A DNA stretch of 64,000 bases, taken from IMG/VR virus record IMGVR_UViG_3300020048_000003. One strand, given 5' to 3'. Both the position numbers and the translations under genes were made by a program. Under the pieces are notes generated by a model. It had not been told where the DNA came from and made no database searches. It worked only from the letters and a program-made list of their open reading frames with translations. Below, piece after piece: positions 3,159 to 25,511 of the stretch. Positions within the stretch are counted from its first letter, which is position 1; each line of letters starts with the position of its first letter. Origin of the DNA: a virus.

Positions 3159-3171
3159 AAATATATAGTTG

Positions 3172-7989: not shown

Positions 7990-8261
7990 TGAAAATACAA
8001 AGGTTTAATGAGAGTTTAGAGAAAATTGAAAAAAAATACAATAGAACAAGGTATGTAGTTAAAAAAACTAGTGAAAAAGATGGTGATCACCTTAGTATGC
8101 CTTGTCTTACAATTGAAGACGCTGTCTCAGCATATAATAGGGTTTTTTCATATGATGATAATCCAAAAGAGTATGATGTTTACATAGTAGAAGAAAAATT
8201 CAGAATAGTGACGAAAGAAGAAATTGAACTATATTCTTCTACAAATAAATATAATCTATGA
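7989..8261 (+). CDS. famA small protein
   Basis: MKIQRFNES...STNKYNL. Confidence 0.75.
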   Translation: MKIQRFNESLEKIEKKYNRTRYVVKKTSEKDGDHLSMPCLTIEDAVSAYNRVFSYDDNPKEYDVYIVEEKFRIVTKEEIELYSSTNKYNL

Positions 8262-8728
8262 GAACTTACGAATCCTTTATATTTAAAAGAGATAGAAAAA
8301 AAAACTTAATTAAAATCCATCAATTTATTGATGAAGTTAAGAATTTTGTTGAAAAAATTATTGCTAAAAATGAAGATTGGATAGTAGATTTAAAAGATGC
8401 TGACGGTAAATTTGAAACATCAATGAGTGTTGCAACTATTTCAGTTGATGCTTATTATGCAAATCTTATTTTCATTATGATATACTATCATAATAAACAA
8501 GAGTATGTTAATTTTGATATACACAAACAATATAATGATACAGTACCAACACTAAAAAAACTCATAGATTTTTTTGAAGATATATTAAAAGGATATTTAC
8601 TTTTTGGTGATATGGGTGGTAATATTGCAAGATATAAAATAAAAATAGAAGATTTAGATGAAGTATTAAAAGAAATAACAGATGAAAATTTTGACTTTCA
8701 TTCTACAGCAATTGATTATAATCTTTAA
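8258..8728 (+). CDS. famA protein
   Basis: MRTYESF...TAIDYNL; 3' end overlaps convergent famB gene. Confidence 0.7.
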   Translation: MRTYESFIFKRDRKKNLIKIHQFIDEVKNFVEKIIAKNEDWIVDLKDADGKFETSMSVATISVDAYYANLIFIMIYYHNKQEYVNFDIHKQYNDTVPTLKKLIDFFEDILKGYLLFGDMGGNIARYKIKIEDLDEVLKEITDENFDFHSTAIDYNL

Positions 8729-8948
8729 TCTTTAATAATTTTTCTTTACGTATTTCCCTTAATAATTTAAATCTAAAAGCATATCTTTTTATTAGATTAC
8801 CATATCCATTTATAACACCTATTTGTCTAATAGTACTATAATTATCATTAACATATTCTATATGTACAATAATGTAATTAGCGTCTAAAACTAATAATTC
8901 ATCATCTTCCATAGGATTTACATATTTTACCTTATCACCTATTTTCAT
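8703..8948 (-). CDS. famB small protein
   Basis: MKIGDKVKYV...LREIRKEKLLKIKDYNQLL. Confidence 0.75.
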   Translation of the reverse strand: MKIGDKVKYVNPMEDDELLVLDANYIIVHIEYVNDNYSTIRQIGVINGYGNLIKRYAFRFKLLREIRKEKLLKIKDYNQLL

Positions 8949-9312
8949 TCGCTATTTTTTGAAGTTTTTCTTTTCTTTCTTCTTTTTGATAATATTTTGC
9001 ATCAAAAACAAAGTGCCTTACTTTCATTTCAATTTCAACTAATCCTGTTATGGAATTATATCCCCAATCCTCTGGATAACAACTAGTAAACATAACTAAT
9101 CCATTTGGATAGGCTATATTAAATGTATCATAATTTATGAGTCTTTTATAATTTTGATACCAATTTCTAACTGAGTCTAAATTTTTAGAAGATGTTGTAA
9201 ATAATAAAGTTGTATTTCCTAAATATCTAGAAAAATCTTTTTCTATATCTCTATTTATACCATTAGTATAACCTTCAACATCAAATGGTATGTTATTTAT
9301 ATAAGCCTTCAT
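8935..9312 (-). CDS. famB-like protein
   Basis: C-term YYQKEERKEKLQKIANENR. Confidence 0.65.
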   Translation of the reverse strand: MKAYINNIPFDVEGYTNGINRDIEKDFSRYLGNTTLLFTTSSKNLDSVRNWYQNYKRLINYDTFNIAYPNGLVMFTSCYPEDWGYNSITGLVEIEMKVRHFVFDAKYYQKEERKEKLQKIANENR

Positions 9313-9541
9313 TTACTTTCATAATTTTTTTCAGTTTATTTTTACGATAGATTTTTTCTGGTATTACAAATGGCTCGGTGAAATCATTTGTATCACCATA
9401 ATCATCAGCTATCCTATATACTATTTTACCCCATTCATCTAATTTATCTGTATTATCATAAAAGTCTAAAACATGATAACTATTACCAATGGTTAACCTT
9501 AAATCAACACCCTCTCTTTCTTTAACAAATACTACTTTCAT
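9293..9541 (-). CDS. famB small protein
   Basis: MKVVFVKE...LTIGNSYHV...KIYRKNKLKKI. Confidence 0.75.
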   Translation of the reverse strand: MKVVFVKEREGVDLRLTIGNSYHVLDFYDNTDKLDEWGKIVYRIADDYGDTNDFTEPFVIPEKIYRKNKLKKIMKVNEGLYK

Positions 9542-9795
9542 ATTTTGTTGATTTTTAGTAATTTATCTTTTCTTGTTTCTTTTATATCTAAATCATAAAA
9601 TCTGTCAACTTGATATGTTGATACATATTCTCTTTTACCGTCAAGTATTACTATATAATTACTAGGAACGACATCATCAACATTTGTGGAAATTCCTTTA
9701 ATTTGAAACTTTTTACTAAATGAAAAGTTCCATATCGTTAGTGGACCCGCAATTTCTTTATTTCTTATTATTTTATCACCCGGACTGAATTTCAT
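9538..9795 (-). CDS. famB small protein
   Basis: SPGDKIIRN...ETRKDKLLKINKI. Confidence 0.75.
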   Translation of the reverse strand: MKFSPGDKIIRNKEIAGPLTIWNFSFSKKFQIKGISTNVDDVVPSNYIVILDGKREYVSTYQVDRFYDLDIKETRKDKLLKINKI

Positions 9796-10051
9796 TTAAT
9801 TTTTCTAATTTTTTTCTTCTATATTCTTTGAATTCAATAAATAACTCTTTATTAAAATATTGATCATTACCATTATCAGTCTTTATTAAATGAGAACCAT
9901 TATCAAAATATCCCCAACTAACTTTGAGGTTAGGTATAATTTCATAAACTTTACCTAATGTTAATTCATTTTTATATTCATCATACCAATAACCACCACA
10001 AAACTGACTTTCAAATCGTTTCCTACCTCTACTTATACAAACAACTTTCAT
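9776..10051 (-). CDS. famB small protein
   Basis: MKVVCISRG...LTLGKVYEI...EYRRKKLEKLNEI. Confidence 0.8.
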   Translation of the reverse strand: MKVVCISRGRKRFESQFCGGYWYDEYKNELTLGKVYEIIPNLKVSWGYFDNGSHLIKTDNGNDQYFNKELFIEFKEYRRKKLEKLNEIQSG

Positions 10052-10250
10052 ATGCTATTTTTTCTAATTTCATTCTTCTAAACTCATTCCAAGGTATAAA
10101 ACATTCTTTAGGACCCCAATAACCACCCTCTGGTCCTGATTTGAAGTAATAATATTTTGTATTTAGCCAAGAATTTGGATCATCTTGATGAATAGAATAT
10201 ACTACATCACCTTTTTTAAATAAACAATTATCCACACAAACTAATTTCAT
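10029..10250 (-). CDS. famB small protein
   Basis: MKLVCVDN..KGDVVY...EFRRMKLEKIAYES. Confidence 0.8.
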   Translation of the reverse strand: MKLVCVDNCLFKKGDVVYSIHQDDPNSWLNTKYYYFKSGPEGGYWGPKECFIPWNEFRRMKLEKIAYESCLYK

Positions 10251-10452
10251 TTTTTATATTATTTAATTTTCTTCTTCTTGTTTCTTTTATTGTTTCAAAC
10301 GCTTCTTTTTCGTAATAAACAGCATAACCAGCATCATTAATTAAATAATACTCATTACGCCTACCTTCTCCTAAAATCTCATAACTCCTACCAACAGTAA
10401 GCCAATAAGTTCCTACACCAGTAGCATTTTTTGTTTTACAAACAACTTTCAT
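10228..10452 (-). CDS. famB small protein
   Basis: MKVVCKTK...LTVGRSYEI...ETRRRKLNNI. Confidence 0.8.
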   Translation of the reverse strand: MKVVCKTKNATGVGTYWLTVGRSYEILGEGRRNEYYLINDAGYAVYYEKEAFETIKETRRRKLNNIKNEISLCG

Positions 10453-10741
10453 ATGCTATACTTTTTAATTTTTTAAGTTTTTCTTTTCTCATTAATTTGA
10501 ACCATTCTTCATAAAATTTTTCTTCCAAATAATTTAAAGTACACCAACGGAGAGTCTTATCATCATTACACCAAATTACAACGGGATTTTCAAAGTTTTT
10601 CATATCTTTATTATCATACCAATCATCAAAAGACATTGGTGCAGGATGTTTCAGAAGATGAATCCAATGATATCCAGATTCAAATAATTTATCTAAAGTA
10701 GAAATCCATTCGTCTCTGTTCTTAATAAGATATAGTTTCAT
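10436..10741 (-). CDS. famB small protein
   Basis: C-term KLMRKEKLKKLKSIAYESCL. Confidence 0.7.
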   Translation of the reverse strand: MKLYLIKNRDEWISTLDKLFESGYHWIHLLKHPAPMSFDDWYDNKDMKNFENPVVIWCNDDKTLRWCTLNYLEEKFYEEWFKLMRKEKLKKLKSIAYESCL

Positions 10742-10949
10742 TTAGTTTTTTTAATTTTAGTTTTCTATATTCTTGAATTGATATGAATCTCCAACTATAA
10801 TACATATCAAGTAATTTATCATCGTCATATATAGTGTAAGCAATTCTATTAGTATAAGTATATTTTTTGGTATAAACAACAGTATATACTTTACCTATTG
10901 TTAGTTTATCACCTGTTCCAGTTTTTATACATACTACTTGTCTTTCCAT
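10722..10949 (-). CDS. famB small protein
   Basis: VVCIKTGTGDKLTIGKVYTV...EYRKLKLKKLNE. Confidence 0.8.
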   Translation of the reverse strand: MERQVVCIKTGTGDKLTIGKVYTVVYTKKYTYTNRIAYTIYDDDKLLDMYYSWRFISIQEYRKLKLKKLNETISY

Positions 10950-11022
10950 AACTTTTCCTCTTATCCCAAAATTAATAAAAATATTCTATAAAAAAAATTA
11001 TATATAAGAATAAAATTAAATC

Positions 11023-11547
11023 ATGAAAAGACTTCAGACCTTTGAAAATTATGATCCAAATAGAAAAGCCACCCTTGATATAACAAGACAACTTAGTAAA
11101 ACTAAATTCTTTCATATAACTAGTAAAATACTATCAGTTATAGATGATCTTGTTCATTTACATTTAGGTGCAGCGGTACATTCATTTAAAAATAAATCAG
11201 GATTTAATAAACTTACCAATTTTGCTAAGGAACTAGGATTACTTAAAAGTTTATACCTTAATGATGAAACTTTATCCTTTCAAGATTTAAAAGACTATGA
11301 GTTTGATCCTAATCTAATTGATGTATTAGATGAACCAGATGTTATTGAATATATGAAGCATGATGATAGAGTTAAAGGTACTCTTGATAAAATGAAAAAT
11401 TTAATAGATTTTCTAAGAGAATATCAAGAATGGTCATTTCCAGAACAATTTTTCTGGAAGTCAGATAAAATACCAACACCCCCAACACCTCCAATGGATA
11501 GAAATAGAGCAGATGGCGAAGAACCTATAAAACCTATTGGCTATTAA
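11023..11547 (+). CDS. hypothetical protein with famA-like N-terminus
   Basis: MKRLQTFENY start; no KYNL end (ends PIKPIGY). Confidence 0.5.
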   Translation: MKRLQTFENYDPNRKATLDITRQLSKTKFFHITSKILSVIDDLVHLHLGAAVHSFKNKSGFNKLTNFAKELGLLKSLYLNDETLSFQDLKDYEFDPNLIDVLDEPDVIEYMKHDDRVKGTLDKMKNLIDFLREYQEWSFPEQFFWKSDKIPTPPTPPMDRNRADGEEPIKPIGY

Positions 11548-11553
11548 TACCTT

Positions 11554-11922
11554 ATGAAACACTTAAAACTATACGAAAACTTAAACGAACCACAAATAGG
11601 TGATTATGTGCTATGTAGAGAATATCCAAACGAAAAAGAAGATATTCACATGACAGATTTTGAAAGATTTCTTTGTAACCATATAGGTCAAATTGTAGAG
11701 CCAGATGAAAAATATAAAAGAAGTTGGACCAGTAACCGTGAAAGATTAGAATATTATATATGGGTAAAATATTCTAAATCTGATATTAAAAATGATAAAA
11801 ATCTAACAGGTGAGGAATTTGTTAAATATATCAGACCATTTATGAGAAAAGAAATAATACACCATTCAAGAAATAAAGAAGATTTAGAAGGATATTTAAT
11901 AGCAAAAAAGTATAATTTATGA
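11554..11922 (+). CDS. famA protein (subtype with NHIGQI ... NKEDLE)
   Basis: MKHLKLYEN..QIGDYVLC..NHIGQIV..SRNKEDLEGYLIAKKYNL. Confidence 0.85.
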   Translation: MKHLKLYENLNEPQIGDYVLCREYPNEKEDIHMTDFERFLCNHIGQIVEPDEKYKRSWTSNRERLEYYIWVKYSKSDIKNDKNLTGEEFVKYIRPFMRKEIIHHSRNKEDLEGYLIAKKYNL

Positions 11923-12233
11923 AACACTTAAAACATTTTGAATCTATTTTAGATATGCCTGATTTGGATTACTATATGGAATATATTAAAACAAACGAGC
12001 CACAAGTAGATGATTATGTGATATGTAAAATTGACGATGCAATGGAAAAAGAACGTTTATATTTTGAAAATACTATATTACAAATTCAAGGAATTGATTT
12101 TAGAGAAGATTATCCATATAATGTAATTTTAAATAATTTTGAATTTAATCTTAAACGTTCAGAAATAATACACCATTCAAAAAATAAAGAAGATTTAGAA
12201 GTATATTTAACAGCAAAAAAGTATAATTTATAA
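11919..12233 (+). CDS. famA protein
   Basis: MKHLKHFES...VDDYVICK...SKNKEDLEVYLTAKKYNL. Confidence 0.85.
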   Translation: MKHLKHFESILDMPDLDYYMEYIKTNEPQVDDYVICKIDDAMEKERLYFENTILQIQGIDFREDYPYNVILNNFEFNLKRSEIIHHSKNKEDLEVYLTAKKYNL

Positions 12234-12482
12234 ATTTGAATTAATCTCTAATAATTTTTGCTTCCTACATTCTTTTATATCATCACTAAATATTTGAAAG
12301 AAAGTATCCTCTGTTACAAATTTCTCATATCCACAATCATCATAGAAATAAATGCAATTTACACCAAAATGTGAATTCCAAAAAATTGTACGCATCTTAT
12401 AATATTTACCAATAGTTAAACAAGTGGCTCTGTTTATACATTTATAACTATGTCCCTCTTTAATTTCTTTATACACGACCAA
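12228..12482 (-). CDS. famB small protein
   Basis: ...CLTIGKYYKM...IKECRKQKLLEINSNL. Confidence 0.75.
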   Translation of the reverse strand: MVVYKEIKEGHSYKCINRATCLTIGKYYKMRTIFWNSHFGVNCIYFYDDCGYEKFVTEDTFFQIFSDDIKECRKQKLLEINSNL

Positions 12483-12798
12483 AATAGTGTTTAACTTTTC
12501 TATTTAATTTCTTTAATTTTTCTTTACGCAATTCATTATCAGTATAGAAATAATCTGAATATAAATTATCACCAGGTTGTTCTTTTGTTTCATAAAAACG
12601 AGCACCATCTAGATAATACTTGTGTGATATGCCTTCATAAACCCAATAAGAACTTCTCCATCCATATAATTTCTTTTCTTCGTTCGTTTTAAATTGCTTT
12701 GATGCTTTATACCATTTACCTTCCTCAAAACTTGAATAAGGTAATGCCTTTTTACACAAAACCATTACTTCTTCACTCATTTTAAAACTCTCTTTCAT
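12469..12798 (-). CDS. famB small protein
   Basis: C-term NELRKEKLKKLNRKV. Confidence 0.7.
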   Translation of the reverse strand: MKESFKMSEEVMVLCKKALPYSSFEEGKWYKASKQFKTNEEKKLYGWRSSYWVYEGISHKYYLDGARFYETKEQPGDNLYSDYFYTDNELRKEKLKKLNRKVKHYFGRV

Positions 12799-13205
12799 AT
12801 CCGACCAATAGTTTTTAACTTTTCTTTACGTATCTCTTGTTTTAATGATAACGAATCCATAACAATTTTCAATCCTTCATATTTATCCTTATCTTTCAAG
12901 AAATTCAATATTTCTTTTTGTTTTTTCTTTATACGAATTCTTCTTAAAGAATACCATTTAAGTTTTTCGTAATTAGAGTAATATATTTGAATATTATTTT
13001 CATAAATATAAACATAAAATAAACTGTTACTATTAGTAATTTCTATTTTTATATTTTTATACATCAGATGTTTTCTTATCCAGTCTTCACAATTTGATTT
13101 TAAGATAATATTATCAATATGATTATTGAGAATATTCTCCATTTGTGTTAGTTTTTTCATACCATTTTCTTTTTTAATTCTCTTAATTTTATTGAACGAG
13201 ACCAT
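12795..13205 (-). CDS. famB protein
   Basis: C-term KQEIRKEKLKTIGRI. Confidence 0.65.
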   Translation of the reverse strand: MVSFNKIKRIKKENGMKKLTQMENILNNHIDNIILKSNCEDWIRKHLMYKNIKIEITNSNSLFYVYIYENNIQIYYSNYEKLKWYSLRRIRIKKKQKEILNFLKDKDKYEGLKIVMDSLSLKQEIRKEKLKTIGRI

Positions 13206-13426
13206 AATACATAATCCACATGCTTCATTATCTTGAAATTAGATTTACACCAAAAATTATTTGTTGCATAAATTTTAGTCCTTCCATCATTATCACTTAT
13301 AGCATAAGTTGAATAAGAATTTGGATTCTTCAACTGATAAAATCTACCATAAGTAAAATTCTTTTTACCTGAACCTGTATATACTAATCCATTCATTTTA
13401 GTTTCCGTAGTTATCATAATTACCAA
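13157..13426 (-). CDS. famB-like small protein
   Basis: C-term RSIKLRELKKKMV (weaker tail). Confidence 0.5.
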   Translation of the reverse strand: MVIMITTETKMNGLVYTGSGKKNFTYGRFYQLKNPNSYSTYAISDNDGRTKIYATNNFWCKSNFKIMKHVDYVLWSRSIKLRELKKKMV

Positions 13427-13484
13427 AATTATAAAAATTTTGTAAATAAAAAAAATTATCCTTTAAATTTTATATATAAGATAG

Positions 13485-13751
13485 ATGAAATATATTAAAA
13501 CATACGAATCCGCAACTAAATATAAAATAGGTGACTATGTGGTTGCTGCTTTAGATTTGACAGATCGTAAAAATAATCGTATACCAGGTAAAGAGAAATT
13601 CTTTCAAATTGTTGATTTGGCGGGTGATAAATATTATAGATGTAAATTATTGTTATATACAGAAGAAGATTTACATTATGCAATAGAAGATCAAAACATA
13701 ATTAGAAAAATAGATGAATATGAAATAACAGCAATGCAATATAACTTATGA
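13485..13751 (+). CDS. famA small protein
   Basis: MKYIKTYES..KIGDYVV...DEYEITAMQYNL. Confidence 0.85.
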   Translation: MKYIKTYESATKYKIGDYVVAALDLTDRKNNRIPGKEKFFQIVDLAGDKYYRCKLLLYTEEDLHYAIEDQNIIRKIDEYEITAMQYNL

Positions 13752-14074
13752 AATATATTAAAACATACGAAAAATACGAAGAGCCAAAATATAAAGTAGG
13801 TGATTATGTACTATTAGATTTAGATAAAGTGAATTCTGAATATTTAATAGATACAGATAATGATGGCAATTTTACAATTCCAGCATTAGTATTAATAACT
13901 AAAACACCAACTAAACCTGATCCAACAACAGCAAATTTTAATAGGTATTACGATGTAGAATTTTATATTGGTGGATCTCTTGATATCAGAGAAGAATATA
14001 TTAAAAGATTATTAACACCTGAAGAAATAGATGAATACAAAATAAAAAAAGAGGCAAATAAATATAACTTATGA
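13748..14074 (+). CDS. famA small protein
   Basis: MKYIKTYEKY..KVGDYVL...LTPEEIDEYKIKKEANKYNL. Confidence 0.85.
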   Translation: MKYIKTYEKYEEPKYKVGDYVLLDLDKVNSEYLIDTDNDGNFTIPALVLITKTPTKPDPTTANFNRYYDVEFYIGGSLDIREEYIKRLLTPEEIDEYKIKKEANKYNL

Positions 14075-14418
14075 TTAAAAAAGTAAAACAATATTGGCTC
14101 TTACCAACGGATAAAAGATTTGTTCCAGCATTAAAAAAAATTAATGTCGCACCTAGTTATATAGACATATTAATAGGTAAAACATGTGATGCTACTAGAA
14201 GAAGCGATAAAGTATTTATATCTCATAGCAATAGTGCTGATGCTAATTATGAACCATGTTTTGGATGGGGTTGGATGCCTTACACAAACAAACCAGAAGA
14301 AGAAGATAAGGGAGTAATCACAAATGATTATTATGAAACACAACATTATGAATTCAAAGGAATTGTTGATATTGAAGAACTTGAATTGAAATTAGCAATA
14401 AATAAATATAATTTATGA
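14071..14418 (+). CDS. famA small protein
   Basis: MIKKVKQYW...ELELKLAINKYNL. Confidence 0.75.
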   Translation: MIKKVKQYWLLPTDKRFVPALKKINVAPSYIDILIGKTCDATRRSDKVFISHSNSADANYEPCFGWGWMPYTNKPEEEDKGVITNDYYETQHYEFKGIVDIEELELKLAINKYNL

Positions 14419-14741
14419 AGCATATAAATCCTTACACAGCAAAGAAATTTAACAATTTTTATCCACTTAAAGGTGATAGATTCATAGAAAATGATGATTA
14501 TGTAGTTATTAGGAATCCATATATAAGATTGTTTAAAATAATTGAAATACAATCAAAATCAGGTACTGTTACACCTGTAAAAATAAAAGAAGTTGATACA
14601 ATGACACAAAGAGCATATATGAATGATTATCAGTATATGGGAAAAGATTACATTGAACATTATCTATACAAAACAAAAGATTTAAACGATGCAATTGAGA
14701 ATTTTGAATTCTTATTGGCAATGGATAAATATAACTTATAA
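14415..14741 (+). CDS. famA small protein
   Basis: MKHINPY...LKGDRFI...LAMDKYNL. Confidence 0.75.
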   Translation: MKHINPYTAKKFNNFYPLKGDRFIENDDYVVIRNPYIRLFKIIEIQSKSGTVTPVKIKEVDTMTQRAYMNDYQYMGKDYIEHYLYKTKDLNDAIENFEFLLAMDKYNL

Positions 14742-14744
14742 CCT

Positions 14745-15068
14745 ATGAAGTATATTAAAAAATTTGAAGACGTTGAATCCATATTAGCACAACTAAAACA
14801 TAAAATTGGTGACTATGTTTTACTAAAATTTTATGATCCTATAGCAGAAGTACCTGCTAAAATAATAAATATAACTAATGATGAATTTGCAATTAATATA
14901 TTGAAAATGAATGATTTATATGAGGTTGAAGCATTAGTATATCGTTACGATGAAGAAGAAGAATTGTGTGAATTTTCAGTCAGCGATAAAGATATATCTA
15001 GAAAACTAACACCAGAAGAAATAGAAGACTTTGAAACAAAAAAAGATGCATTAAACTATAACTTATGA
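14745..15068 (+). CDS. famA small protein
   Basis: MKYIKKFED..KIGDYVL...LTPEEIEDFETKKDALNYNL. Confidence 0.85.
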   Translation: MKYIKKFEDVESILAQLKHKIGDYVLLKFYDPIAEVPAKIINITNDEFAINILKMNDLYEVEALVYRYDEEEELCEFSVSDKDISRKLTPEEIEDFETKKDALNYNL

Positions 15069-16315: not shown

Positions 16316-16333
16316 ACAAAAAAATATAACCCT

Positions 16334-16666: not shown

Positions 16667-16668
16667 TT

Positions 16669-17753: not shown

Positions 17754-17770
17754 AAAATAATAAATACAGT

Positions 17771-17923: not shown

Positions 17924-17926
17924 CCT

Positions 17927-18205: not shown

Positions 18206-18206
18206 T

Positions 18207-18437
18207 ATGAAAATAAAGAAATTAAACGAATTATACGAAGAAACTACTTCAGTACATAGTGCAGAATTTTATGATTTAATGCAAGAATATAGATTTACAC
18301 CACCCCGTGACCAAAAAATGACAATTAAATCATACGAAAATGTTAAAGATTTTATAGAAAAAAACTATATCTTAAAAGATATACCAACCATTAAACAATG
18401 GCTACTAGAACAAGACGCAAATAAATATAATCTATGA
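18207..18437 (+). CDS. famA small protein
   Basis: MKIKKLNELYEE...LEQDANKYNL. Confidence 0.75.
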   Translation: MKIKKLNELYEETTSVHSAEFYDLMQEYRFTPPRDQKMTIKSYENVKDFIEKNYILKDIPTIKQWLLEQDANKYNL

Positions 18438-18730
18438 GATATATTAAAACATTTGAAAACTTAAATGAAAATGAACCAAAAGTTGGTGATTATGTTATTA
18501 TACAACAAGATGCTGTACTGGATCCATATAAAATCTGGCAAATAAAAGAAATAATTCCAAAAGAACACTTTCGAACATCTAATCCATATAATTACACTTT
18601 AAGATATGAAAGATGGGAAAATGATAGAAATTGGAAACAAATACAAGTTAGTAGAGATTACATTAAATATTGGTCAAATAATAAAGAAGACTTGAAAAAT
18701 ATAATAGAAATACAAAAATATAACCTATGA
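18434..18730 (+). CDS. famA small protein
   Basis: MRYIKTFEN..KVGDYVI...NKEDLKNIIEIQKYNL. Confidence 0.85.
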   Translation: MRYIKTFENLNENEPKVGDYVIIQQDAVLDPYKIWQIKEIIPKEHFRTSNPYNYTLRYERWENDRNWKQIQVSRDYIKYWSNNKEDLKNIIEIQKYNL

Positions 18731-19092
18731 AATATATAAATCAATACGAAGCAGTTACACCACAACCAAGAATCGGTGATTACGTGTTGTGTGAACTTGA
18801 TCCCATTGTTAATGACCAAGATAAAAAACTTATTAACTTCGTAGAAAACAATATTGGAGTAATTATAGAAAGAAAATTAACCAAATCATCATTTGGAGAA
18901 TATAATAGAAAAAAATTCTTCTACTCAATAGAATATGAAAATATGCGAGCAGGTAGAGATTATGATAGTACATACTCAATGAAAGATGGAACAACTAATG
19001 TAATCCTAGTGTTTAGAACAGAAATTCAATACTTCTCAAATAATAGAGAAGATATAGAAGCAATATTAACAGCAAAAAAATATAACCTATGA
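18727..19092 (+). CDS. famA protein
   Basis: MKYINQYEA..RIGDYVLC..NNIGVII..SNNREDIEAILTAKKYNL. Confidence 0.85.
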   Translation: MKYINQYEAVTPQPRIGDYVLCELDPIVNDQDKKLINFVENNIGVIIERKLTKSSFGEYNRKKFFYSIEYENMRAGRDYDSTYSMKDGTTNVILVFRTEIQYFSNNREDIEAILTAKKYNL

Positions 19093-19466
19093 TAAAAACT
19101 TACGAAGGCTTTTTTGATAGATTTAAAAAGAAACCTAAACCAGTTCAAATACAAGGTGAATATTGGTTCATTTCAAGCAATAGTCCAAACTATATGAAAT
19201 TGGCTTTTATTAAAATAAGCGAAGTTTTAGCAAAACAAGTTCCATATCAATTAGATAGTATAAATAAATTAGAACAACTATTTCAAATTCTTTTGAATGA
19301 TCACGTAAATAGTAGTTCATTGACAAGTTTTTACCTTGCATTAGATTACTACACAAAACATTGGACATATAGCGCAGGCTCATATCCATTTGAAAGACTC
19401 TATAAATTCAATGGAGAAATTATAGTAGACGACTTTGAACTAGACGCAGAAAAATATAACCTATAA
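19089..19466 (+). CDS. famA protein
   Basis: MIKTYEGFF...FELDAEKYNL. Confidence 0.75.
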   Translation: MIKTYEGFFDRFKKKPKPVQIQGEYWFISSNSPNYMKLAFIKISEVLAKQVPYQLDSINKLEQLFQILLNDHVNSSSLTSFYLALDYYTKHWTYSAGSYPFERLYKFNGEIIVDDFELDAEKYNL

Positions 19467-19774
19467 TGAAATCATATAAATTATTTACAGAATCTATAAG
19501 ATATATTAATATTAACAAGGGTGACTATGTTAAAATTAAAACTTCTATTTATAGCGATGCTGAAAAAGAAAAAATATTCAAAGTAATTGGAAAATACTAT
19601 GACGATGGCTGCAGCGATGCAGAAGATGGTGGTAAAGAAAATCTTTTTACCTTAATTAATGCAATTGATACTGATGAAAAACAAACACTTCATAAAGACC
19701 ACCTTAGAAAATTAACAAAGAAAGAACTAGAAAAATTTGAATTAGAACAATCAGCAAATAGATATAACCTCTAA
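19466..19774 (+). CDS. famA small protein
   Basis: MKSYKLFTES..KGDYVKI...LTKKELEKFELEQSANRYNL; 3' end overlaps convergent famB by 4 nt. Confidence 0.8.
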   Translation: MKSYKLFTESIRYININKGDYVKIKTSIYSDAEKEKIFKVIGKYYDDGCSDAEDGGKENLFTLINAIDTDEKQTLHKDHLRKLTKKELEKFELEQSANRYNL

Positions 19775-20082
19775 ATATCTTCATAAATTTTCTTTAACTT
19801 ATTATACCTTATTAAACCACCTACCGTACCCATATACTTACCCAAATTATCATTGTTTTCATAGTTTACTATAAATAAACACCAACCTTGAGAAGTTTTG
19901 CTAAACTCACCATCATCATAAGTTAATAATACCTTTACATTACTCCTTCCAAAATTGTACTTGAGATAATTTAATAACCATTCCTTATACCCTATATCAG
20001 CCTTTGCAGGTATTATATATGTGTCCACAACTTGATTGATTAAATGTAATTCATTAAACCTTAATACCCAATACTTTTTCAT
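19771..20082 (-). CDS. famB-like protein
   Basis: C-term LIRYNKLKKIYEDI. Confidence 0.55.
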   Translation of the reverse strand: MKKYWVLRFNELHLINQVVDTYIIPAKADIGYKEWLLNYLKYNFGRSNVKVLLTYDDGEFSKTSQGWCLFIVNYENNDNLGKYMGTVGGLIRYNKLKKIYEDI

Positions 20083-20088
20083 AACAGT

Positions 20089-20394
20089 TTACCAAAATCT
20101 AAACCAACTAACTTTCTTTAACCTCTTTAACTTCTTGACCCTCTCTTGCTTAAGTGTAAGTTTAGGCTTAGATGATCTAACAATAACTAAATTCTCGTCA
20201 CTACCAAGATCCATTAATAAAAAAATTAAAAGAATCAATATATTTATAGGTCCCGCAATAGATATAACAGACGCAAATATGTAATCTTGCCTGTCCAATT
20301 CATTATCCATCAACCTGTTTAATATCATAATAGAACCAAACAAACCAACCAATAACCAAAATATTAAAAGAATTATCATAAGAAAAATAATCAT
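20089..20394 (-). CDS. membrane protein with famB-like basic tail
   Basis: 2 TM (IIFLMIILLIFWLLVGLFG / ISIAGPINILILLIFLL) + KQERVKKLKRLKKV. Confidence 0.55.
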   Translation of the reverse strand: MIIFLMIILLIFWLLVGLFGSIMILNRLMDNELDRQDYIFASVISIAGPINILILLIFLLMDLGSDENLVIVRSSKPKLTLKQERVKKLKRLKKVSWFRFW

Positions 20395-20657
20395 AACATT
20401 GCCTCTTTTATAGTTTTTAACTTCATTCTCCGCATCTCCTGAATATCATAAAAATATTCATAAAAATAATTAATTCCAGGATTGTATATAAGTGAAAATG
20501 ATTTAGGTTTACCTTTAAACCTTATAAACTCACAAGTTATAGGACTATCACTTATAATACCTATATCCTCTATTATATAATAATTACCCTTATTATATAA
20601 TACATAATTACCACCAGTATAATCCTCCTTACATAAAATTCTATCACCTACTTTCAT
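20391..20657 (-). CDS. famB small protein
   Basis: MKVGDRILCKED...IQEMRRMKLKTIKEAML. Confidence 0.8.
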   Translation of the reverse strand: MKVGDRILCKEDYTGGNYVLYNKGNYYIIEDIGIISDSPITCEFIRFKGKPKSFSLIYNPGINYFYEYFYDIQEMRRMKLKTIKEAML

Positions 20658-20895
20658 ATATCTCCTTTAACTTTCTTTTACGATACTCCTTCAAACTTAT
20701 AAACCTACAAGAATAATAATGCCTCTCCTCACCATTATCATCACATAAATAATACCTCTCATAAAACTTACCACTTCCATGCTCAAAATCTTCCTTTAAT
20801 ATACTATATACCTTGCCATACGTTAAATTTACAGAAGTATTAAACCAAGATTCATCTATATCACTCACATCTATACATACTACCTTAGTCAACAT
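20644..20895 (-). CDS. famB small protein
   Basis: VVCIDVSD..LTYGKVY...RFISLKEYRKRKLKEI. Confidence 0.85.
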   Translation of the reverse strand: MLTKVVCIDVSDIDESWFNTSVNLTYGKVYSILKEDFEHGSGKFYERYYLCDDNGEERHYYSCRFISLKEYRKRKLKEIYESR

Positions 20896-21115
20896 AACTA
20901 TATAATCTTTTTAATTTCTCTTTCCGATACTCCCTTAAACTTATAAACCTACGAGAATAATACCGCCTTTTCTCACCCGTATCATCACACAAATAAAATC
21001 CACCTTCATCTTCACCAGTTAATAAGATATATACCTTACCTACTGTTAAATTTATAGAACCCTTAACAGGATCTATCTTATCTGCATTTACACACACCAC
21101 TTTATTCATTAACAA
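20885..21115 (-). CDS. famB small protein
   Basis: VVCVNADK..LTVGKVY...RFISLREYRKEKLKRL. Confidence 0.85.
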   Translation of the reverse strand: MLMNKVVCVNADKIDPVKGSINLTVGKVYILLTGEDEGGFYLCDDTGEKRRYYSRRFISLREYRKEKLKRLYSYVD

Positions 21116-21362
21116 TCTTTTTTAACTTTATTCTTCTACTCTCACTTAACGATACAAAATACTCAGACTCATAACCAGCATTATGATTATTATCATTTAT
21201 AATCCATATTCTCAACCTCATACCACTATTATGAATATGTGACTGAAGTACAATATATACCTTACCCTCAGTCAAATCATTAGAACTAACCTTAGATACA
21301 ACACGATTACCAGTACTGAACTCCTTCTTCTTACTATCCGTTACCTTATCATACAGACCCAT
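21102..21362 (-). CDS. famB small protein
   Basis: LTEGKVYIV...SLSESRRIKLKKIVNE. Confidence 0.75.
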   Translation of the reverse strand: MGLYDKVTDSKKKEFSTGNRVVSKVSSNDLTEGKVYIVLQSHIHNSGMRLRIWIINDNNHNAGYESEYFVSLSESRRIKLKKIVNE

Positions 21363-21690
21363 AACTATTCAACTTTTTTAATTTGTCCCTCCTTCTATCA
21401 GCAATACTTATTATATCAAAATATTTAAAAATATCATCACAACGAAAAATAATAAATTCATTCTTATCATCAATTATATCACACTTCCAATAATAACTCC
21501 TACTAGAACCAAAAGATTTATCATAACATACAGCAACACTACCAATACTATACTCCTTACCAATAGTAAAATGCCAACGCCTTAACCTTTTCGGTGCCTT
21601 CTCATTTCCCACCTGTAAAAAAGCAACATACCTATCACGCTTACATATAATAGGTGTGTTCCTCATTGATAAATACTCATACAGATCCAT
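21349..21690 (-). CDS. famB protein
   Basis: FTIGKEYSI...IADRRRDKLKKLNSY. Confidence 0.7.
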   Translation of the reverse strand: MDLYEYLSMRNTPIICKRDRYVAFLQVGNEKAPKRLRRWHFTIGKEYSIGSVAVCYDKSFGSSRSYYWKCDIIDDKNEFIIFRCDDIFKYFDIISIADRRRDKLKKLNSYGSV

Positions 21691-21934
21691 TCTCTATCTC
21701 CTTTAACTTTCTCTTACGATACTCCTTTATTGTTATAAACCTTTTTTCACTATACTGCCGAACTTGTTTCACATCATTTTCCATTTCATAAAAATAACAA
21801 CCATCATATTCCATATCAACAATAACATATAACTTGTCCAAAGTTAAAAAACAAGACTTATCAACACCATAAGCACCAAACTTACCATTATTAATACATA
21901 TAACCTTATCACCGATTTTTATATTATCCCTCAT
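21677..21934 (-). CDS. famB small protein
   Basis: IKIGDKVICINN...RFITIKEYRKRKLKEIENG. Confidence 0.85.
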   Translation of the reverse strand: MRDNIKIGDKVICINNGKFGAYGVDKSCFLTLDKLYVIVDMEYDGCYFYEMENDVKQVRQYSEKRFITIKEYRKRKLKEIENGSV

Positions 21935-22208
21935 TTAACCTCCGTAACTTTAACCTCCTTATAAATAATATACTACTTACAATTTCATAATCACTTGTAT
22001 CTATATGAATATAATTATTCGCCTTATACCGAGAAACCTTACCCAAAGCCTCAATAGTATCATTCCTAATCCTTAAAGCACAATTTTCATAATCACTCTC
22101 CCTTAATTCTCCACACCTATCACGCCAATCTATATCCATAGAAAATAATACCAATTGAACATTCCTAAACTCCTTCGCATTACTACAACATATTATAACA
22201 TTATTCAT
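21924..22208 (-). CDS. famB-like small protein
   Basis: C-term LFIRRLKLRRLNEG. Confidence 0.6.
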   Translation of the reverse strand: MNNVIICCSNAKEFRNVQLVLFSMDIDWRDRCGELRESDYENCALRIRNDTIEALGKVSRYKANNYIHIDTSDYEIVSSILFIRRLKLRRLNEG

Positions 22209-22476
22209 ATAACCTCCGTAACTTTAACATTCGCATTAACTTTATATCATCCGTCTCCCAACCTTCACAATTACCTTCCTCCTCACTCTTGAAAACATTA
22301 TACTTCTTACTACATGATGTATAATAATCTGAACCATCATGAAACTTACAAGAATAACACTTCTTATTCATAGGATTAAAACAACACCTTGTCTCATGCA
22401 CAACTACTTTCATACTTGAAATATCAGTATGACTACAAAAATCACATTTCCAAACTCTCTTCATCTGTGTCCACAT
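22201..22476 (-). CDS. Cys-rich (zinc-binding type) famB protein
   Basis: WKCDFCSH...RCCFNP..KKCYSCKF...NCEGW...LMRMLKLRRLYE; paralog of 63581..63877. Confidence 0.7.
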   Translation of the reverse strand: MWTQMKRVWKCDFCSHTDISSMKVVVHETRCCFNPMNKKCYSCKFHDGSDYYTSCSKKYNVFKSEEEGNCEGWETDDIKLMRMLKLRRLYE

Positions 22477-22657
22477 TTAACTTATCCAACTTATACTTCC
22501 TAACATCCTTAATATTATATTCAATACAATCTATCTGTTCATCATTATTAACACTACAAGTACCAGACCAACACATAACATCCTTATCATGTTGTACCCG
22601 ATGTGGACATTCTGTAACATCACACTCCAATCCCCTTGAACATATCATTTTTTCCAT
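22442..22657 (-). CDS. Cys-rich famB small protein
   Basis: CSRGLECDVTECPH...CWSGTC...IKDVRKYKLDKLN. Confidence 0.7.
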   Translation of the reverse strand: MEKMICSRGLECDVTECPHRVQHDKDVMCWSGTCSVNNDEQIDCIEYNIKDVRKYKLDKLNVDTDEESLEM

Positions 22658-22881
22658 TCTCCTTTTAATTTATTTAACTTATACTTCCGTGCCTCCTTCA
22701 AACTCATAAACCTATAAGCATAAAAATAATTGGTAAATATAACACCATTCTTCGCAATATCCACCATCTTACGCTTTTCTCCATCAAAAACACCAACAAC
22801 ATCATATACACCACCTATATCTAAATCATTCTCCTTATAAGTATTATCCTTACAAATTATTTTATCACCTACATTAAACAT
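22645..22881 (-). CDS. famB small protein
   Basis: MFNVGDKIICKDN...FMSLKEARKYKLNKLKG. Confidence 0.85.
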   Translation of the reverse strand: MFNVGDKIICKDNTYKENDLDIGGVYDVVGVFDGEKRKMVDIAKNGVIFTNYFYAYRFMSLKEARKYKLNKLKGEWKK

Positions 22882-22893
22882 AACACATTACTA

Positions 22894-23112
22894 TTAAAGA
22901 CGACTTACAATCTTTTCCAATTTTAACCTCCTATACTCTTTAAGTTCTATGAAAAAACTCCGAGGATATGCAAAATACTCTCCAATATCATTCAACACAA
23001 CTATCCTATCATCCGTATATTTCCACTTATTCCTCCTATTATAATCAATTTCATATACCCTTCCAATAGTTATGAAAATCTGACCCTTACTATTTATACA
23101 TATCACTCTCAT
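22894..23112 (-). CDS. famB small protein
   Basis: MRVICINSKG..ITIGRVYEI...ELKEYRRLKLEKIVSRL. Confidence 0.85.
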   Translation of the reverse strand: MRVICINSKGQIFITIGRVYEIDYNRRNKWKYTDDRIVVLNDIGEYFAYPRSFFIELKEYRRLKLEKIVSRL

Positions 23113-23312
23113 ATTCTTTCTAATTGAAGTTTATCTAATTTCTTCTTACGCTCATCCCTTATACTATATTTAACACACTTTATATTCATATCATGAACAC
23201 CACAAATACCATGTAAACAATCCCTATAAGTTTCTATATGCGGCTTAATATGTGGACACTCCACCTTTTTACAACCTTCAGCCATTGAACATACCATCAC
23301 TATTTCTGTCAT
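23109..23312 (-). CDS. Cys-rich famB small protein
   Basis: CSMAEGCKKVECPH...CLHGICGVH...IRDERKKKLDKLQ. Confidence 0.7.
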   Translation of the reverse strand: MTEIVMVCSMAEGCKKVECPHIKPHIETYRDCLHGICGVHDMNIKCVKYSIRDERKKKLDKLQLERI

Positions 23313-23313
23313 A

Positions 23314-23502
23314 TTATTCTCTCCAACTATCTAAATTTTCTAATTTCTTTTTACGAACCTCCTTTAATGAAATAAACCTCCAAGCATAATAACCATTAAT
23401 GAAAACTCCACCACTATAATCCTCAATTATATAAATCTTATTCTCCTCCAGTACCTTAGTACTACGAGCATCAATACAAATAACCCTATCTCCTATCTTC
23501 AT
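23314..23502 (-). CDS. famB small protein
   Basis: MKIGDRVICIDAR...RFISLKEVRKKKLENL. Confidence 0.85.
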   Translation of the reverse strand: MKIGDRVICIDARSTKVLEENKIYIIEDYSGGVFINGYYAWRFISLKEVRKKKLENLDSWRE

Positions 23503-23753
23503 ATCTCCGGTTCTATTAAAGACGACTTATTAATTTTTTCCAACTTTAACCTCCGATACTCACTCTCAGTAGCAAAATAACAACAATCGTAAGAAAATAT
23601 ATCACCACTATTATTCTCAATCAGATAATGAGTTAATTTCTTATTATTAATATTATGAATTTGAAATCCATCATCATCATAAAATAAAACAGTATACCAC
23701 TTTCCAGGTGTTATCCAAGTATGCTGACCCTTATCTACACATAATATCTTCAT
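23499..23753 (-). CDS. famB small protein
   Basis: MKILCVDKG...ESEYRRLKLEKINKSSLIEPEI. Confidence 0.8.
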   Translation of the reverse strand: MKILCVDKGQHTWITPGKWYTVLFYDDDGFQIHNINNKKLTHYLIENNSGDIFSYDCCYFATESEYRRLKLEKINKSSLIEPEI

Positions 23754-23983
23754 AACTCCGGTTCTATTAAAGACGACCTATTTATTCTTTCCAATTTCTT
23801 ACGACGATACTCCTTTAATGTAACAAAATGCCGATCAGCATAACAAAATCGTGACCCCATATCATTAATAATCCAATACTCCTTGAAAATCCTCTGAGAA
23901 ATACAAGCCACAACCTCATACTTTCTACCAACAGTTATAAAACTCTGCTCACCTCTATTTATACAAACTACCTTCAAATTCAT
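23750..23983 (-). CDS. famB small protein
   Basis: VVCINRGEQSFITVGRKYEV...LKEYRRKKLERINRSSLIEPEL. Confidence 0.85.
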   Translation of the reverse strand: MNLKVVCINRGEQSFITVGRKYEVVACISQRIFKEYWIINDMGSRFCYADRHFVTLKEYRRKKLERINRSSLIEPEL

Positions 23984-24210
23984 AACTCACTCTTATTTCT
24001 TAACTCCAACAACTTTAACCTACGATACTCCTTATTATTGTTAAATAACTTCATAGGATAACTAAAACTAAATCCCATATCATTAAAAACTAAATACTCA
24101 CCATAAGTAGAAGATAACTCACAATCATACAACTTACCAACAGTTAATAAAAAATATCCACAATACTCTCCATTACGAATATTATTCTTCTCAATACATA
24201 TTAACCTCAT
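23980..24210 (-). CDS. famB small protein
   Basis: MRLICIEKN...LTVGKLY...NKEYRRLKLLEL. Confidence 0.85.
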   Translation of the reverse strand: MRLICIEKNNIRNGEYCGYFLLTVGKLYDCELSSTYGEYLVFNDMGFSFSYPMKLFNNNKEYRRLKLLELRNKSEL

Positions 24211-24433
24211 ATTTCATCCTTATCTTGTTTAACTTTTCACTCCTTTCATCCTTTATATCCATAAAACATTCAGCCTCATATGGTCCACAAAAACCATCAT
24301 CATTATTTATTCTGTAATATATACAACCATCATAAGAACGATAAGAATCATGTACAAAATACCGCCTACCAACAGTTATAAAATTATAATCAAAAGCATT
24401 TATACATATTAAATAATCACCAACCTTTTTCAT
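24191..24433 (-). CDS. famB small protein
   Basis: KKVGDYLICINA..ITVGRRY...IKDERSEKLNKI. Confidence 0.8.
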   Translation of the reverse strand: MKKVGDYLICINAFDYNFITVGRRYFVHDSYRSYDGCIYYRINNDDGFCGPYEAECFMDIKDERSEKLNKIRMKYEVNMY

Positions 24434-24678
24434 AACTCCATAATTATTTTTAACTTCTTCTTCCTTATATCCCGAACCTTCTCAAACCTCCAACTATAAT
24501 AACCATTAATGTAAAATTCTCCATCATAATCACCAAGATAACTTAACTTCTCTATAATATATACACGACCCAGCTTTAACTCCATAACATTAGCAGCAGG
24601 ATGCTTGTCATTAATACATACAACCCTATCACCTAATTTGAAATTATTAATACTTGATACCCTATTCTCCATTATCAT
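24430..24678 (-). CDS. famB small protein
   Basis: FKLGDRVVCIND...KVRDIRKKKLKII. Confidence 0.85.
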   Translation of the reverse strand: MIMENRVSSINNFKLGDRVVCINDKHPAANVMELKLGRVYIIEKLSYLGDYDGEFYINGYYSWRFEKVRDIRKKKLKIIMEL

Positions 24679-24914
24679 ACCGTTTCTATTAGAGACGACC
24701 TACTTATTCTTTCCAATTTCTTACGACGATACTCCCGAACATCCTCAAACCGCCAAGTAAAATAACCATTGATATATGTATCACCATCAGGCGAATAACT
24801 ATAATCCTCAACCTCCTTTATAATATAAATTTTACCAATAGTTAAATAGTTCTCAACCATCGCATTATCTATACATACTACCCTATCACCTACTTTACAA
24901 TCTAATATATTCAT
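24675..24914 (-). CDS. famB small protein
   Basis: CKVGDRVVCIDN..LTIGKIY...DVREYRRKKLERISRSSLIETV. Confidence 0.85.
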   Translation of the reverse strand: MNILDCKVGDRVVCIDNAMVENYLTIGKIYIIKEVEDYSYSPDGDTYINGYFTWRFEDVREYRRKKLERISRSSLIETV

Positions 24915-24923
24915 ATATTCATA

Positions 24924-25181
24924 CTACCACCTATTATTAATCTTTTCCAATTTACGCTTACGATAATCCCTCAAACTTATAAACCTATTCTCATAATAAC
25001 CATTTACATAATATTCATCTGACCGAGCAGTCCTACCATACTCAACCACATAAACTTGATTAAGAACTAAACAATCCTCTACTCCAAAATTATCTATACA
25101 TACAACCCTCTCACCCTCATTATACTTACAAGAGTTCTTATTCTTAGAACTCACTGCCGAATCACTCAAATACCTACCCAT
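24924..25181 (-). CDS. famB small protein
   Basis: EGERVVCIDN...RFISLRDYRKRKLEKINNRW. Confidence 0.85.
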   Translation of the reverse strand: MGRYLSDSAVSSKNKNSCKYNEGERVVCIDNFGVEDCLVLNQVYVVEYGRTARSDEYYVNGYYENRFISLRDYRKRKLEKINNRW

Positions 25182-25416
25182 TAAAGACGACCTCCCCCAA
25201 TTTCCTTAATTTCAAACAACGACTCTTCTTCTCCTCCATCACATATGGCTCCGTATACCAACTCTTATTACCATAATCATCTACTATTAAAAACCTCACA
25301 CTTCCCCACTCATCTACCCTCTGTGTATTAGGCAAAATATTTAACACCTCATAACTCTTTCCAATAGTTAATCCCATATAATCACCAAAATATGTCTTTA
25401 CAAATATTACCCTCAT
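25174..25416 (-). CDS. famB small protein
   Basis: MRVIFVKTY..LTIGKSYEV...KKSRCLKLRKLGE. Confidence 0.75.
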   Translation of the reverse strand: MRVIFVKTYFGDYMGLTIGKSYEVLNILPNTQRVDEWGSVRFLIVDDYGNKSWYTEPYVMEEKKSRCLKLRKLGEVVFNG

Positions 25417-25511
25417 TCCCCAAAGATAAAAATAATTACCAATATAAAAAAATATCCACTCAAAATTTAATATAAAATTTTAATATATAAAGAAAAATAA
25501 TCATATCACAC

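Follow-up and report, generated by a model that had tools for sequence, protein, structure and literature searches.

Two end-tagged paralog families meeting in convergent blocks: part of a proposed hyperplastic region of a probable T4-like jumbo phage

We analyzed a 64-kb stretch of viral DNA (IMG/VR record IMGVR_UViG_3300020048_000003; the whole stretch is called the window below) in which, over positions 8258 to 25416, plus-strand blocks of one gene family, famA, repeatedly run head-on into minus-strand blocks of a second family, famB, with overlapping 3′ ends. Our preferred reading, to which we assign a probability of roughly 0.6, is that this segment belongs to a ~65-kb hyperplastic accessory region of a low-GC (~25%) jumbo phage from an uncultivated clade with a T4 gp23-type capsid, and that the region consists of two expanded, terminally tagged families undergoing cassette turnover. 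The convergent overlaps themselves are an ordinary product of extreme gene packing, which is found throughout the window and is not peculiar to three junctions. The window as a whole, with a GC content of ~25% and only 14 open reading frames (ORFs) of at least 150 amino acids (aa), is a mosaic of the two paralog families.

The three convergent junctions lie at the coordinates given in an earlier note on this DNA, and a direct reading of the ORF map yielded overlaps of 26, 6, and 4 nt. At 8703-8728, the gene 8258-8728(+) meets 8703-8948(−) over 26 nt; at 12228-12233, 11919-12233(+) meets 12228-12482(−) over the 6 nt TTATAA, which reads Leu-stop on both strands; and at 19771-19774, 19466-19774(+) meets 19771-20082(−) over the 4 nt CTAA. 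The same map bears out the description of two families in alternating strand blocks with overlapping 3′ ends, and the A-then-B alternation is genuine, amounting to four successive head-on pairs when 292-3453 and 3593-4485 are included. The first overlap holds the palindrome GATTATAATC at 8706-8726, from which Asp-Tyr-Asn is read on either strand, and through this symmetry the famB gene located there ends in a famA-like DYN.

None of the three junctions has a hairpin terminator, a claim of the earlier note that a consensus scan and local folding sustained. The scan, which looked for a G+C-rich stem-loop with a U-run close to or at each junction on either strand, found no terminator-like site at 8703-8728, 12228-12233, or 19771-19774. 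Nor are there strong local folds near the junctions: among the 50-nt segments on both strands within ~70 nt, the best folded at −2.1 to −6.4 kcal/mol, placing them between the 14th and 56th percentiles of all 50-nt segments between 5 and 28 kb. With overlapping stops, each mRNA would be complementary to the final codons, at least, of the mRNA facing it; the suggestion that these ends generate antisense RNA therefore stands to this geometric extent, provided that both blocks are transcribed to their stop codons.

The packing behind these overlaps is evident from the window gene map, in which 201 genes give a coding density of 93.6% and 128 of 186 co-directional neighbor pairs overlap (median gap, −4). 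Overlaps between famA genes are mostly 4 nt long (ATGA), and those between famB genes range from 4 to 38 nt. Four of the six credible convergent junctions overlap, among them one at 52646/52643, and all six divergent junctions keep an AT-rich spacer of 42 to 95 nt; the blocks are thus unbroken strings of overlapping genes, with free DNA only where they diverge. Convergent stops overlap because neighboring genes in this compacted genome routinely share 4 to 26 nt. The junctions resemble convergent pairs of compact bacterial and phage genomes in their shared 3′ ends, in having no intrinsic hairpin, and in the untranslated, C-rich antisense RNA that read-through would produce, and no feature sets them apart from such pairs with factor-dependent termination. 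By themselves, they teach little and are simply the look of a 94%-coding phage genome. A comparison with relatives added no informative case of a conserved head-on overlap among 157 loci. Independent assemblies (ENA ERZ27262924 and ERZ27262927; Logan SRR7760390) agree with the window at 99.5 to 100%, and the window sequence is therefore no assembly artifact.

The famA family comprises 73 genes (72 by hidden Markov model [HMM]), all on the plus strand, in blocks referred to here as A1 (292-3453), A2 (7301-8728), A3 (11554-12233), A4 (13485-19774), and A5 (37893-52646). Its members begin with the tag MK[YH][IL]Kx[FY]E and close with the tag KYN[LI]; in all, 73 ORFs have YN[LIM] at the C terminus. 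The famB family occupies both strands and counts ~87 genes by HMM and 93 by its C-terminal tag, [EK][YF]R[KR]xKLxK[LI], which is followed by a short variable tail overlapping the next start. Its main blocks are B2 (8703-10949), B3 (12228-13426), B4 (19771-25416), and B5 (30583-37809) on the minus strand and B6 (54515-63877) on the plus strand. One of two terminal tags is thus present on ~166 of the 201 window genes, and the proteins of both families are 60 to 250 aa long.

What lies between the termini is far less uniform. After the tags were trimmed (in famA, 10 N-terminal and 8 C-terminal residues), a barrel core was retained by 39 of 73 famA-tagged and 44 of 93 famB-tagged ORFs. The other 34 famA-tagged ORFs, of 59 to 256 aa, have unrelated cores, and the nonbarrel famB-tagged ORFs include Cys-rich and membrane proteins. 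Core members of both families are confidently predicted to fold as an SH3/Tudor-like five-stranded β-barrel followed by a helix: the AlphaFold2 models reached mean confidence scores (pLDDT) of 85.5 for famA and 89.6 for famB, and they resemble SH3, Tudor, KOW, or PsaE domains. The famA N-terminal tag is modeled as coil outside the fold (pLDDT 63). In the BFVD fold database, famA found no match below an E value of 0.01. A common origin of the two families was considered and is unsupported, as hhalign gave a probability of 53% over the first hairpin only. The families differ in charge, famA being acidic (median isoelectric point [pI], 5.6; 49 of 73 below 6) and famB basic (median pI, 9.1), and from these sequence-derived values they might be physical partners. 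Among metagenomic famA homologs, two proteins of 243 aa (P0085) and 214 aa (P0009) each join two complete famA units in frame, with the internal C-terminal and N-terminal tags partly kept, as would fit read-through or fusion at ATGA junctions.

Since roughly one in two tagged genes has an unrelated core, the tags appear to behave as portable address labels on diverse cargo. Conservation of terminal residues alone, across barrel and nonbarrel cores, would be the mark of an addressing system and not of an enzyme family. In the mechanism that we propose, the proteins would serve as a diversified set of small binding modules in host takeover or counter-defense, and the tags would direct famA and famB proteins to one common partner or compartment. 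The functional statement to which we commit goes no further than this: we infer a set of diversified host-interaction modules addressed to a common partner.

The arrays carry signs of growth and loss by single genes. The closest paralogs are 25 to 56% identical at the protein level, and the best hit lies in another block for 42 of 71 famA and 53 of 87 famB genes, with no collinearity; the immediate neighbor is the best hit for 18 famB and 4 famA genes. At the DNA level, a self-comparison by BLASTN revealed three adjacent tandem pairs (66 to 74% identity over 270 to 470 bp) and gene-end repeats of 50 to 90 bp that are up to 95% identical. The A3 genes 11554-11922 and 11919-12233 illustrate the pattern, the last 74 nt being 94.6% identical and the encoded bodies ~36% identical. 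An assembly that is 99.9% identical to the window (L001) contains one extra, unique famB gene of 68 aa (L001 16629-16835), placed on the minus strand between homologs of 23499-23753 and 23750-23983, i.e., at 23745-23829 of the window. This single-ORF indel is bounded by a repeated junction that encodes SSLIEPE[IL] followed by a stop. An "empty cassette" of 27 aa at 38515-38598(+) consists of the N-terminal and C-terminal tags only (MRYIKTFENSNKKEDLFFKLDAKKYNL), with ATGA overlaps on both sides, and decayed or truncated famA copies persist as array remnants at 42060-42116(+) and 3450-3554(+) (34 aa). We read the empty and truncated copies as what cassette decay, or recombination between tags, left behind. 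As far as the sequences tell, array evolution proceeds cassette by cassette, with births and deaths arising through recombination at the conserved junctions that encode the tags and not through duplication of A+B modules.

The blocks also differ in composition, with sense-strand G/C ratios of 2.1 in B2 and B3, 4.2 in B4, 0.82 in B5, 1.2 in A4, and 2.4 in A5. Within a single family, B4 (C, 5.9%; G, 24.7%) and B5 (47% A; G/C, 0.82) have opposite sense compositions. Separate origins, different expression classes, or selection on mRNA are possible explanations for this block-specific avoidance of C.

The two families had relatives in metagenomes and none among the GenBank phages searched. Megablast of positions 13 to 21 kb against 50,697 GenBank phages gave no match, as did tblastn with one famA and one famB member against the same set; Pfam and PHROGs returned no or marginal matches for representative members and for ten larger "cargo" members, and an exact 50-mer from the window had no match in IMG/VR. 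A word-indexed search recovered 22 famA and 62 famB relatives, all metagenomic. Among metagenomic cluster representatives at 50% identity, an exhaustive search with a famA profile found 3,438 at E values of ≤1e-3 and 1,251 at ≤1e-10, with the same termini. A degenerate pattern for the famA junction retrieved 71 IMG/VR stretches, on contigs of up to 330 kb. The window sequence itself was found on a contig of 209,136 bp, ena:ERZ27262924:k141_278361, and on a JGI/Logan contig of 286,618 bp. The famB array runs ~1.8 kb beyond the end of the window on a locus of the same genome (L006), so that the arrays, from 292 to that point, cover ~65 kb, or 23 to 31% of the genome.

Relatives provide the link to T4. 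In one related locus (L008), famA genes adjoin a gp23-type major capsid gene (Pfam Gp23, E = 9e-23; PDB 5vf3), which has 73 relatives in IMG/VR, and famA junctions occur together with a gp23-type gene on 3300025858_000010 (243 kb), 3300020048_000026 (155 kb), and 3300028738_000068. The relatives' contigs measure 150 to 345 kb. Arrays resembling famB are found on a 222-kb contig with T4_Y16D, a T4-type RNA ligase, and TnpB, and genes flanking the window have homologs in these related loci, one of which lies 5 kb from the capsid gene. The shared flanking genes are the only tie between the window and these contigs. For the window's own genome, the capsid and core genes stayed out of reach, and its T4 likeness is therefore deduced from relatives and a few shared genes. 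On the 222-kb relative, an IS605 OrfB/TnpB (Cas12f-like) gene at 678-2135(−) of L012/L013 adjoins the famB-like arrays and the T4_Y16D gene.

Several alternatives bear on how the arrays arose and on what their conserved ends are. The earlier note saw in the repeated pairing a duplicated module of one A and one B block, and the terminator-less convergent ends could then be a regulatory device that couples famA and famB by collision or antisense RNA, an explanation that we regard as improbable. It is favored by the four successive head-on pairs, three of them overlapping, by the acidic (5.6) and basic (9.1) pI values, which are those expected of stoichiometric partners, and by the fact that six of the nine B2 genes find their best hit in B4. 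However, the A/B gene counts of ~4/9, 3/4, and 20/24 do not correspond, and self-BLASTN detected no similarity between pairs beyond the 50- to 90-bp gene-junction repeats and the three adjacent tandem pairs, so that neither collinearity, nor size correspondence, nor inter-block DNA similarity speaks for duplication. Block sizes and contents without correspondence are just what the earlier note had named as evidence against its proposal. The A2 genes match A5 and A1, not A4; best hits of A2 and A3 genes are scattered over A5, A1, A4, and A3 in no order; and the genes next to the three junctions are no more closely related to one another than to other members. Block compositions differ, overlaps are the genome-wide norm, the long famB blocks B5 and B6 have no famA partner, famB also occurs on the plus strand, and related loci mostly hold famA without famB. 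Equally hard to sustain is the notion that the gene ends are DNA or RNA elements, with KYNL, as AAATATAAYYTATGA, serving as a −10 promoter (TATAAT), a reinitiation signal, or a recombination site and amino acid conservation as a by-product. KYNL is encoded by AAATATAAYYTA, which contains TATAAT; the junction AAATATAATTTATGAAATATATTAAA, which likewise contains it, recurs 20 times with up to three mismatches against 0.01 expected; junction repeats reach 95% DNA identity; and a Shine-Dalgarno sequence is missing before 62 of 71 famA starts, where ATGA coupling probably matters (it is also absent before 69 of 87 famB starts, GGAG occurring mainly in B4). Yet the invariant Tyr and Asn of KYNL are encoded by TAC in 9 and by AAC in 14 of 71 genes, close to the bulk rate of 13% each. 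Every block retains the C-terminal tag in its last gene, where there is no downstream start ([K/D/R]YNL in famA blocks), and the N-terminal tag in its first gene, and the same termini are conserved in thousands of distant homologs at ~30% identity. Sigma-70-like sites show no enrichment (139 found; 150 expected). Synonymous-site variation and the tags kept at block ends led us to reject KYNL/TATAAT as a promoter, and on this sequence evidence the conserved ends are taken to be constrained at the level of protein, not DNA.

A further set of alternatives concerns destination and identity. In T4, the capsid-targeting sequence (CTS) is MKTYQEFIAE (PMC8442874), which we also read directly from ipII and ipIII; residues 4 and 7 determine targeting, and residues 8 and 10 determine processing (PMC9026906), and the CTS is all that T4 internal proteins, a diverse defense-countering (anti-restriction) cargo, have in common (PMC3012670). 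The tags might similarly be virion-addressing signals, with famA sent into the prohead via a T4-type CTS, and possibly via its C-terminal tag, and injected with the DNA as an anti-defense/takeover cocktail, and with famB entering through a basic C-terminal helix, in the manner of encapsulin cargo-loading peptides; we entertain this as a tentative and rather unlikely possibility. Four famA-tagged genes, starting at 7301, 8258, 41167, and 44296, have N termini (MKTYENFITD, MRTYESFIFK, MRNYKSFIEE, and MRNYNEFINE, respectively) that score 24 to 31 against the CTS, where a composition-matched null gives a probability of 5.5e-5 per sequence for a score of ≥25; their cores fail the barrel test (E ≥ 0.34). 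The best-conserved hydrophobic positions of the main famA consensus, MK[YH]IKx[FY]E, are 4 (I/L) and 7 (F/Y), so that it shares a hydrophobic residue 4 and an aromatic residue 7 with the CTS and is otherwise different. The N-terminal tag is unstructured and outside the fold, the cargo joined to the tags is diverse, a gp23-type capsid is present in the clade, and famB is basic like T4 internal proteins. An [LI]-x-E processing context is present as FINE in 44296 and FIEE in 41167; 7301 has FITD, and in T4 an Asp at CTS position 10 blocks processing and not targeting (PMC9026906). Against this, the median famA pI of 5.6 contrasts with 9.6 for mature T4 IPII and IPIII, so that famA departs from the basic mature proteins of T4, and famB, which is basic, has no N-terminal CTS. 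No [LI]xE cleavage context is present in the main consensus, the match spans 10 residues in an AT-rich proteome, at least 160 cargo species per capsid would be unprecedented, neither the prohead protease nor the scaffold of this genome was seen, and the C-terminal tag has no T4 counterpart. The CTS-like N termini are thus a lead, not proof, for packaging into the virion. Somewhat more doubtful again is the fullest version, in which a capsid would be loaded with >150 small SH3-like and other cargo proteins, famA via a CTS-like N-terminal tag plus KYNL and famB via its basic helix, to be injected with the DNA as a combinatorial, rapidly reshuffled arsenal against host defense or for host takeover, the junctions doubling as the recombination substrate by which the library is renewed. 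A source other than a tailed phage, be it a giant virus of eukaryotes or a hypervariable region of a cell or plasmid, seems to us very improbable. The GC content of ~25%, the absence of a hallmark gene inside the window, tandem multigene families typical of nucleocytoplasmic large DNA viruses, and the glycosyltransferases and DUF723 in related locus L008 would suit such an origin, but they are opposed by dozens of ATGA start/stop overlaps in operon-like blocks, the Gp23 capsid gene on the same contigs as famA, matches to a GIY-YIG homing endonuclease and a histidine-kinase PHROG, T4_Y16D and the T4-type RNA ligase beside famB arrays, and contig sizes of 150 to 345 kb.

Transcription of the arrays can be outlined tentatively. 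Blocks would start at the AT-rich divergent spacers (42 to 95 nt) bearing a TATATA-type element; the spacers would be bidirectional promoter regions and each block one transcription unit, read without internal punctuation until blocks meet head-on. The motif T[AT]ATATA[AT][AG] is matched six times in the 425 nt of spacers, where the window rate predicts 0.21, occurring in five of six spacers and often as the palindrome TTATATATAA. Three spacers lie in or next to the segment of interest: 10950-11022 (73 nt, AT-rich), a candidate bidirectional promoter region with the palindromic element TTATATATAAG; 13427-13484 (58 nt), with TTTATATATAAG located 5 nt upstream of the A4 start codon; and 25417-25511 (95 nt) at the head of B4, which carries TTAATATATAAAG. 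Termination at the convergent junctions would be factor dependent, by collision, or by read-through decay. Rho prefers untranslated, C-rich and G-poor RNA, and the read-through RNA of 600 nt beyond the three junctions has C/G counts of 95/46, 114/49, and 127/45. A role for Rho would be pure inference, and factor-dependent termination, polymerase collision, and simple tolerance, each of them possible, are not separable from sequence.

A number of observations weigh against the hyperplastic jumbo-phage reading or its parts. Among the best 120 homologs of the L008 gp23-type capsid fragment, none was located on the 286,618- or 209,136-bp contig. An assembly difference could in principle account for the single cassette indel, though the extra gene is unique sequence. 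Fold matches are generic, and the function of the members is only deduced. The spacer element recalls the T4 late −10 box TATAAATA, but the promoter assignment is post hoc in spacers that are 88% AT, and neither TATATAAG nor TATAAATA shows window-wide enrichment; the enrichment that holds is the one specific to the spacers. As regards Rho, the B5 sense strand has more C than G.

The remaining features of the region fit into a simple block map. Block A1 has eight genes plus the truncated remnant at 3450-3554 and faces the famB genes at 3593-4485(−) across a gap of 139 nt; further famB genes, likewise assigned by HMM or tag, lie at 4560-5976(+). Block A2 consists of four famA-tagged genes (7301-7729, 7726-7989, 7989-8261, and 8258-8728), all ending in (K/D)YNL, and includes two of the four with CTS-like N termini. 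Block B2 has nine genes with successive overlaps of 13 to 23 nt and the C-terminal tag RKxKLxK[LI]. At 11023-12233(+), the two A3 famA genes are preceded by 11023-11547, whose N terminus is famA-like and which lacks the KYNL tag, and the four genes of B3 include 12795-13205(−), a C-terminal tag on a non-SH3 core. The ~20 genes of A4 are joined mostly by 4-nt ATGA overlaps; its non-SH3 "cargo" members are 14071-14418, 16669-17121, 18207-18437, and 19089-19466, and 16334-16666 is untagged. Among the ~24 genes of B4 are Cys-rich cores at 22201-22476, 22442-22657, and 23109-23312 and a membrane core at 20089-20394, all with the famB C-terminal tag. Beyond this segment, B5 has ~27 genes and is A-rich, A5 has ~43 genes and ends in the fourth convergent overlap, of 4 nt, with 52643-53290(−), and B6 is interrupted by genes for a GIY-YIG homing endonuclease (61467-62342) and a cold-shock protein (62411-62611). 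The GIY-YIG/NUMOD endonuclease and cold-shock genes are syntenic in three IMG/VR loci (L025, L071, and L076; 52 to 61% identity) and may move as a unit.

Outside the arrays, the largest noncoding stretch of the window (25713-26150; 438 nt) has four direct repeats of the AAAAGTGG type at 25788-25828 and two hairpin and T-run sites, 25868-25894 and 26095-26115, which are the sole good terminator-like structures near the junctions. Candidate identities for this stretch are a small-RNA locus, an iteron- or origin-like site, and the neighborhood's real transcription stop. A tRNA at 29301-29388(−), scoring 36 bits in Rfam against a gathering score of 29 and missed by ARAGORN, probably owes its 88 nt to a long variable arm or insert; it is adjoined by 38-nt tandem repeats (29190-29288) and by a gene for a HisKA/HATPase_c histidine kinase (29537-30295[−]). 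Together with this kinase, receiver-domain genes (cREC_REC and Response_reg) at 5187-5519 of L006, from the same genome, and at 5134-5505 of L009, from a relative, suggest a phage-borne two-component system. Finally, at 3095-3164, between two famA genes, a 28-nt unit is repeated 2.5 times with the inverted repeat TATCACG.ATAT.CGTGATA in each copy; it is the sole structured intergenic element within a famA block.

A broad literature search for comparable phage paralog arrays found nothing relevant, and the nearest parallels each cover part of what is seen here. The hyperplastic regions of T4-type phages with PeSL (early promoter plus stem-loop) cassettes are likewise clusters of small, fast-evolving ORFs of no assigned function in a T4-like genome, in which close relatives differ by single-ORF indels and a short repeat supplies the homology for recombination (PMC2839356, PMC4122927). 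The PeSL repeat, however, is an intergenic early promoter with a stem-loop terminator, whereas the repeat in our arrays is the coding sequence of protein termini; the median gap of −4, the lack of stem-loops, and the lack of sigma-70-like enrichment all depart from the PeSL design. The arrays also differ in being made of paralogs of two families only and in their far larger scale (~160 genes, ~65 kb). Tandem paralog arrays in variable regions are shared with MGF110/360/505 of African swine fever virus, poxvirus "accordions," and T4 tifA amplification (bioRxiv 10.1101/2022.04.14.488369), and all of these, like the present ones, are thought to serve arms races with the host and to grow by unequal recombination. 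Accordions are recent, near-identical copies, whereas the copies described here are old (25 to 56% aa identity), encode 60 to 250 aa, and are conserved only at their termini.

As in famA, a short conserved N-terminal peptide is carried by unrelated small proteins in a gp23-type phage in the case of T4 IPI, IPII, IPIII, and Alt, the last of which is processed at both termini (PMC8442874, PMC9026906, PMC3012670). A subset of the famA tags matches the T4 CTS determinants Y4, F7, I8, and E/D10. T4 has three to four CTS genes, related phages have a few, and the T4 products are basic; here, famA is acidic, with the consensus MKYIKxFE and an invariant C-terminal KYN[LI]. In encapsulins, a short conserved terminal peptide, the cargo-loading peptide, directs diverse cargo inside an HK97-fold shell, and one or a few cargo genes lie next to the shell gene. 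The logic of a tag plus variable cargo is the same as in the arrays, and the sequences are dissimilar. Relative to PeSL and CTS loci, the two closest parallels, what differs is a coding boundary repeat, the restriction to two families, and the scale of ~160 genes: a fifth to a third of a 209- to 287-kb phage genome goes to two families that no database names, one of which, famA, has ~3,400 representatives. If the address is the capsid, as the CTS likeness suggests, the paradigm of the T4 internal proteins would grow from three members to a large, evolvable library, and a short portable tag for loading cargo into jumbo-phage heads would be at hand. If it is instead a host hub, a protease, or a partner family, the arrays would still be an unusually clean natural case of tag-plus-cargo cassette evolution in a virus.

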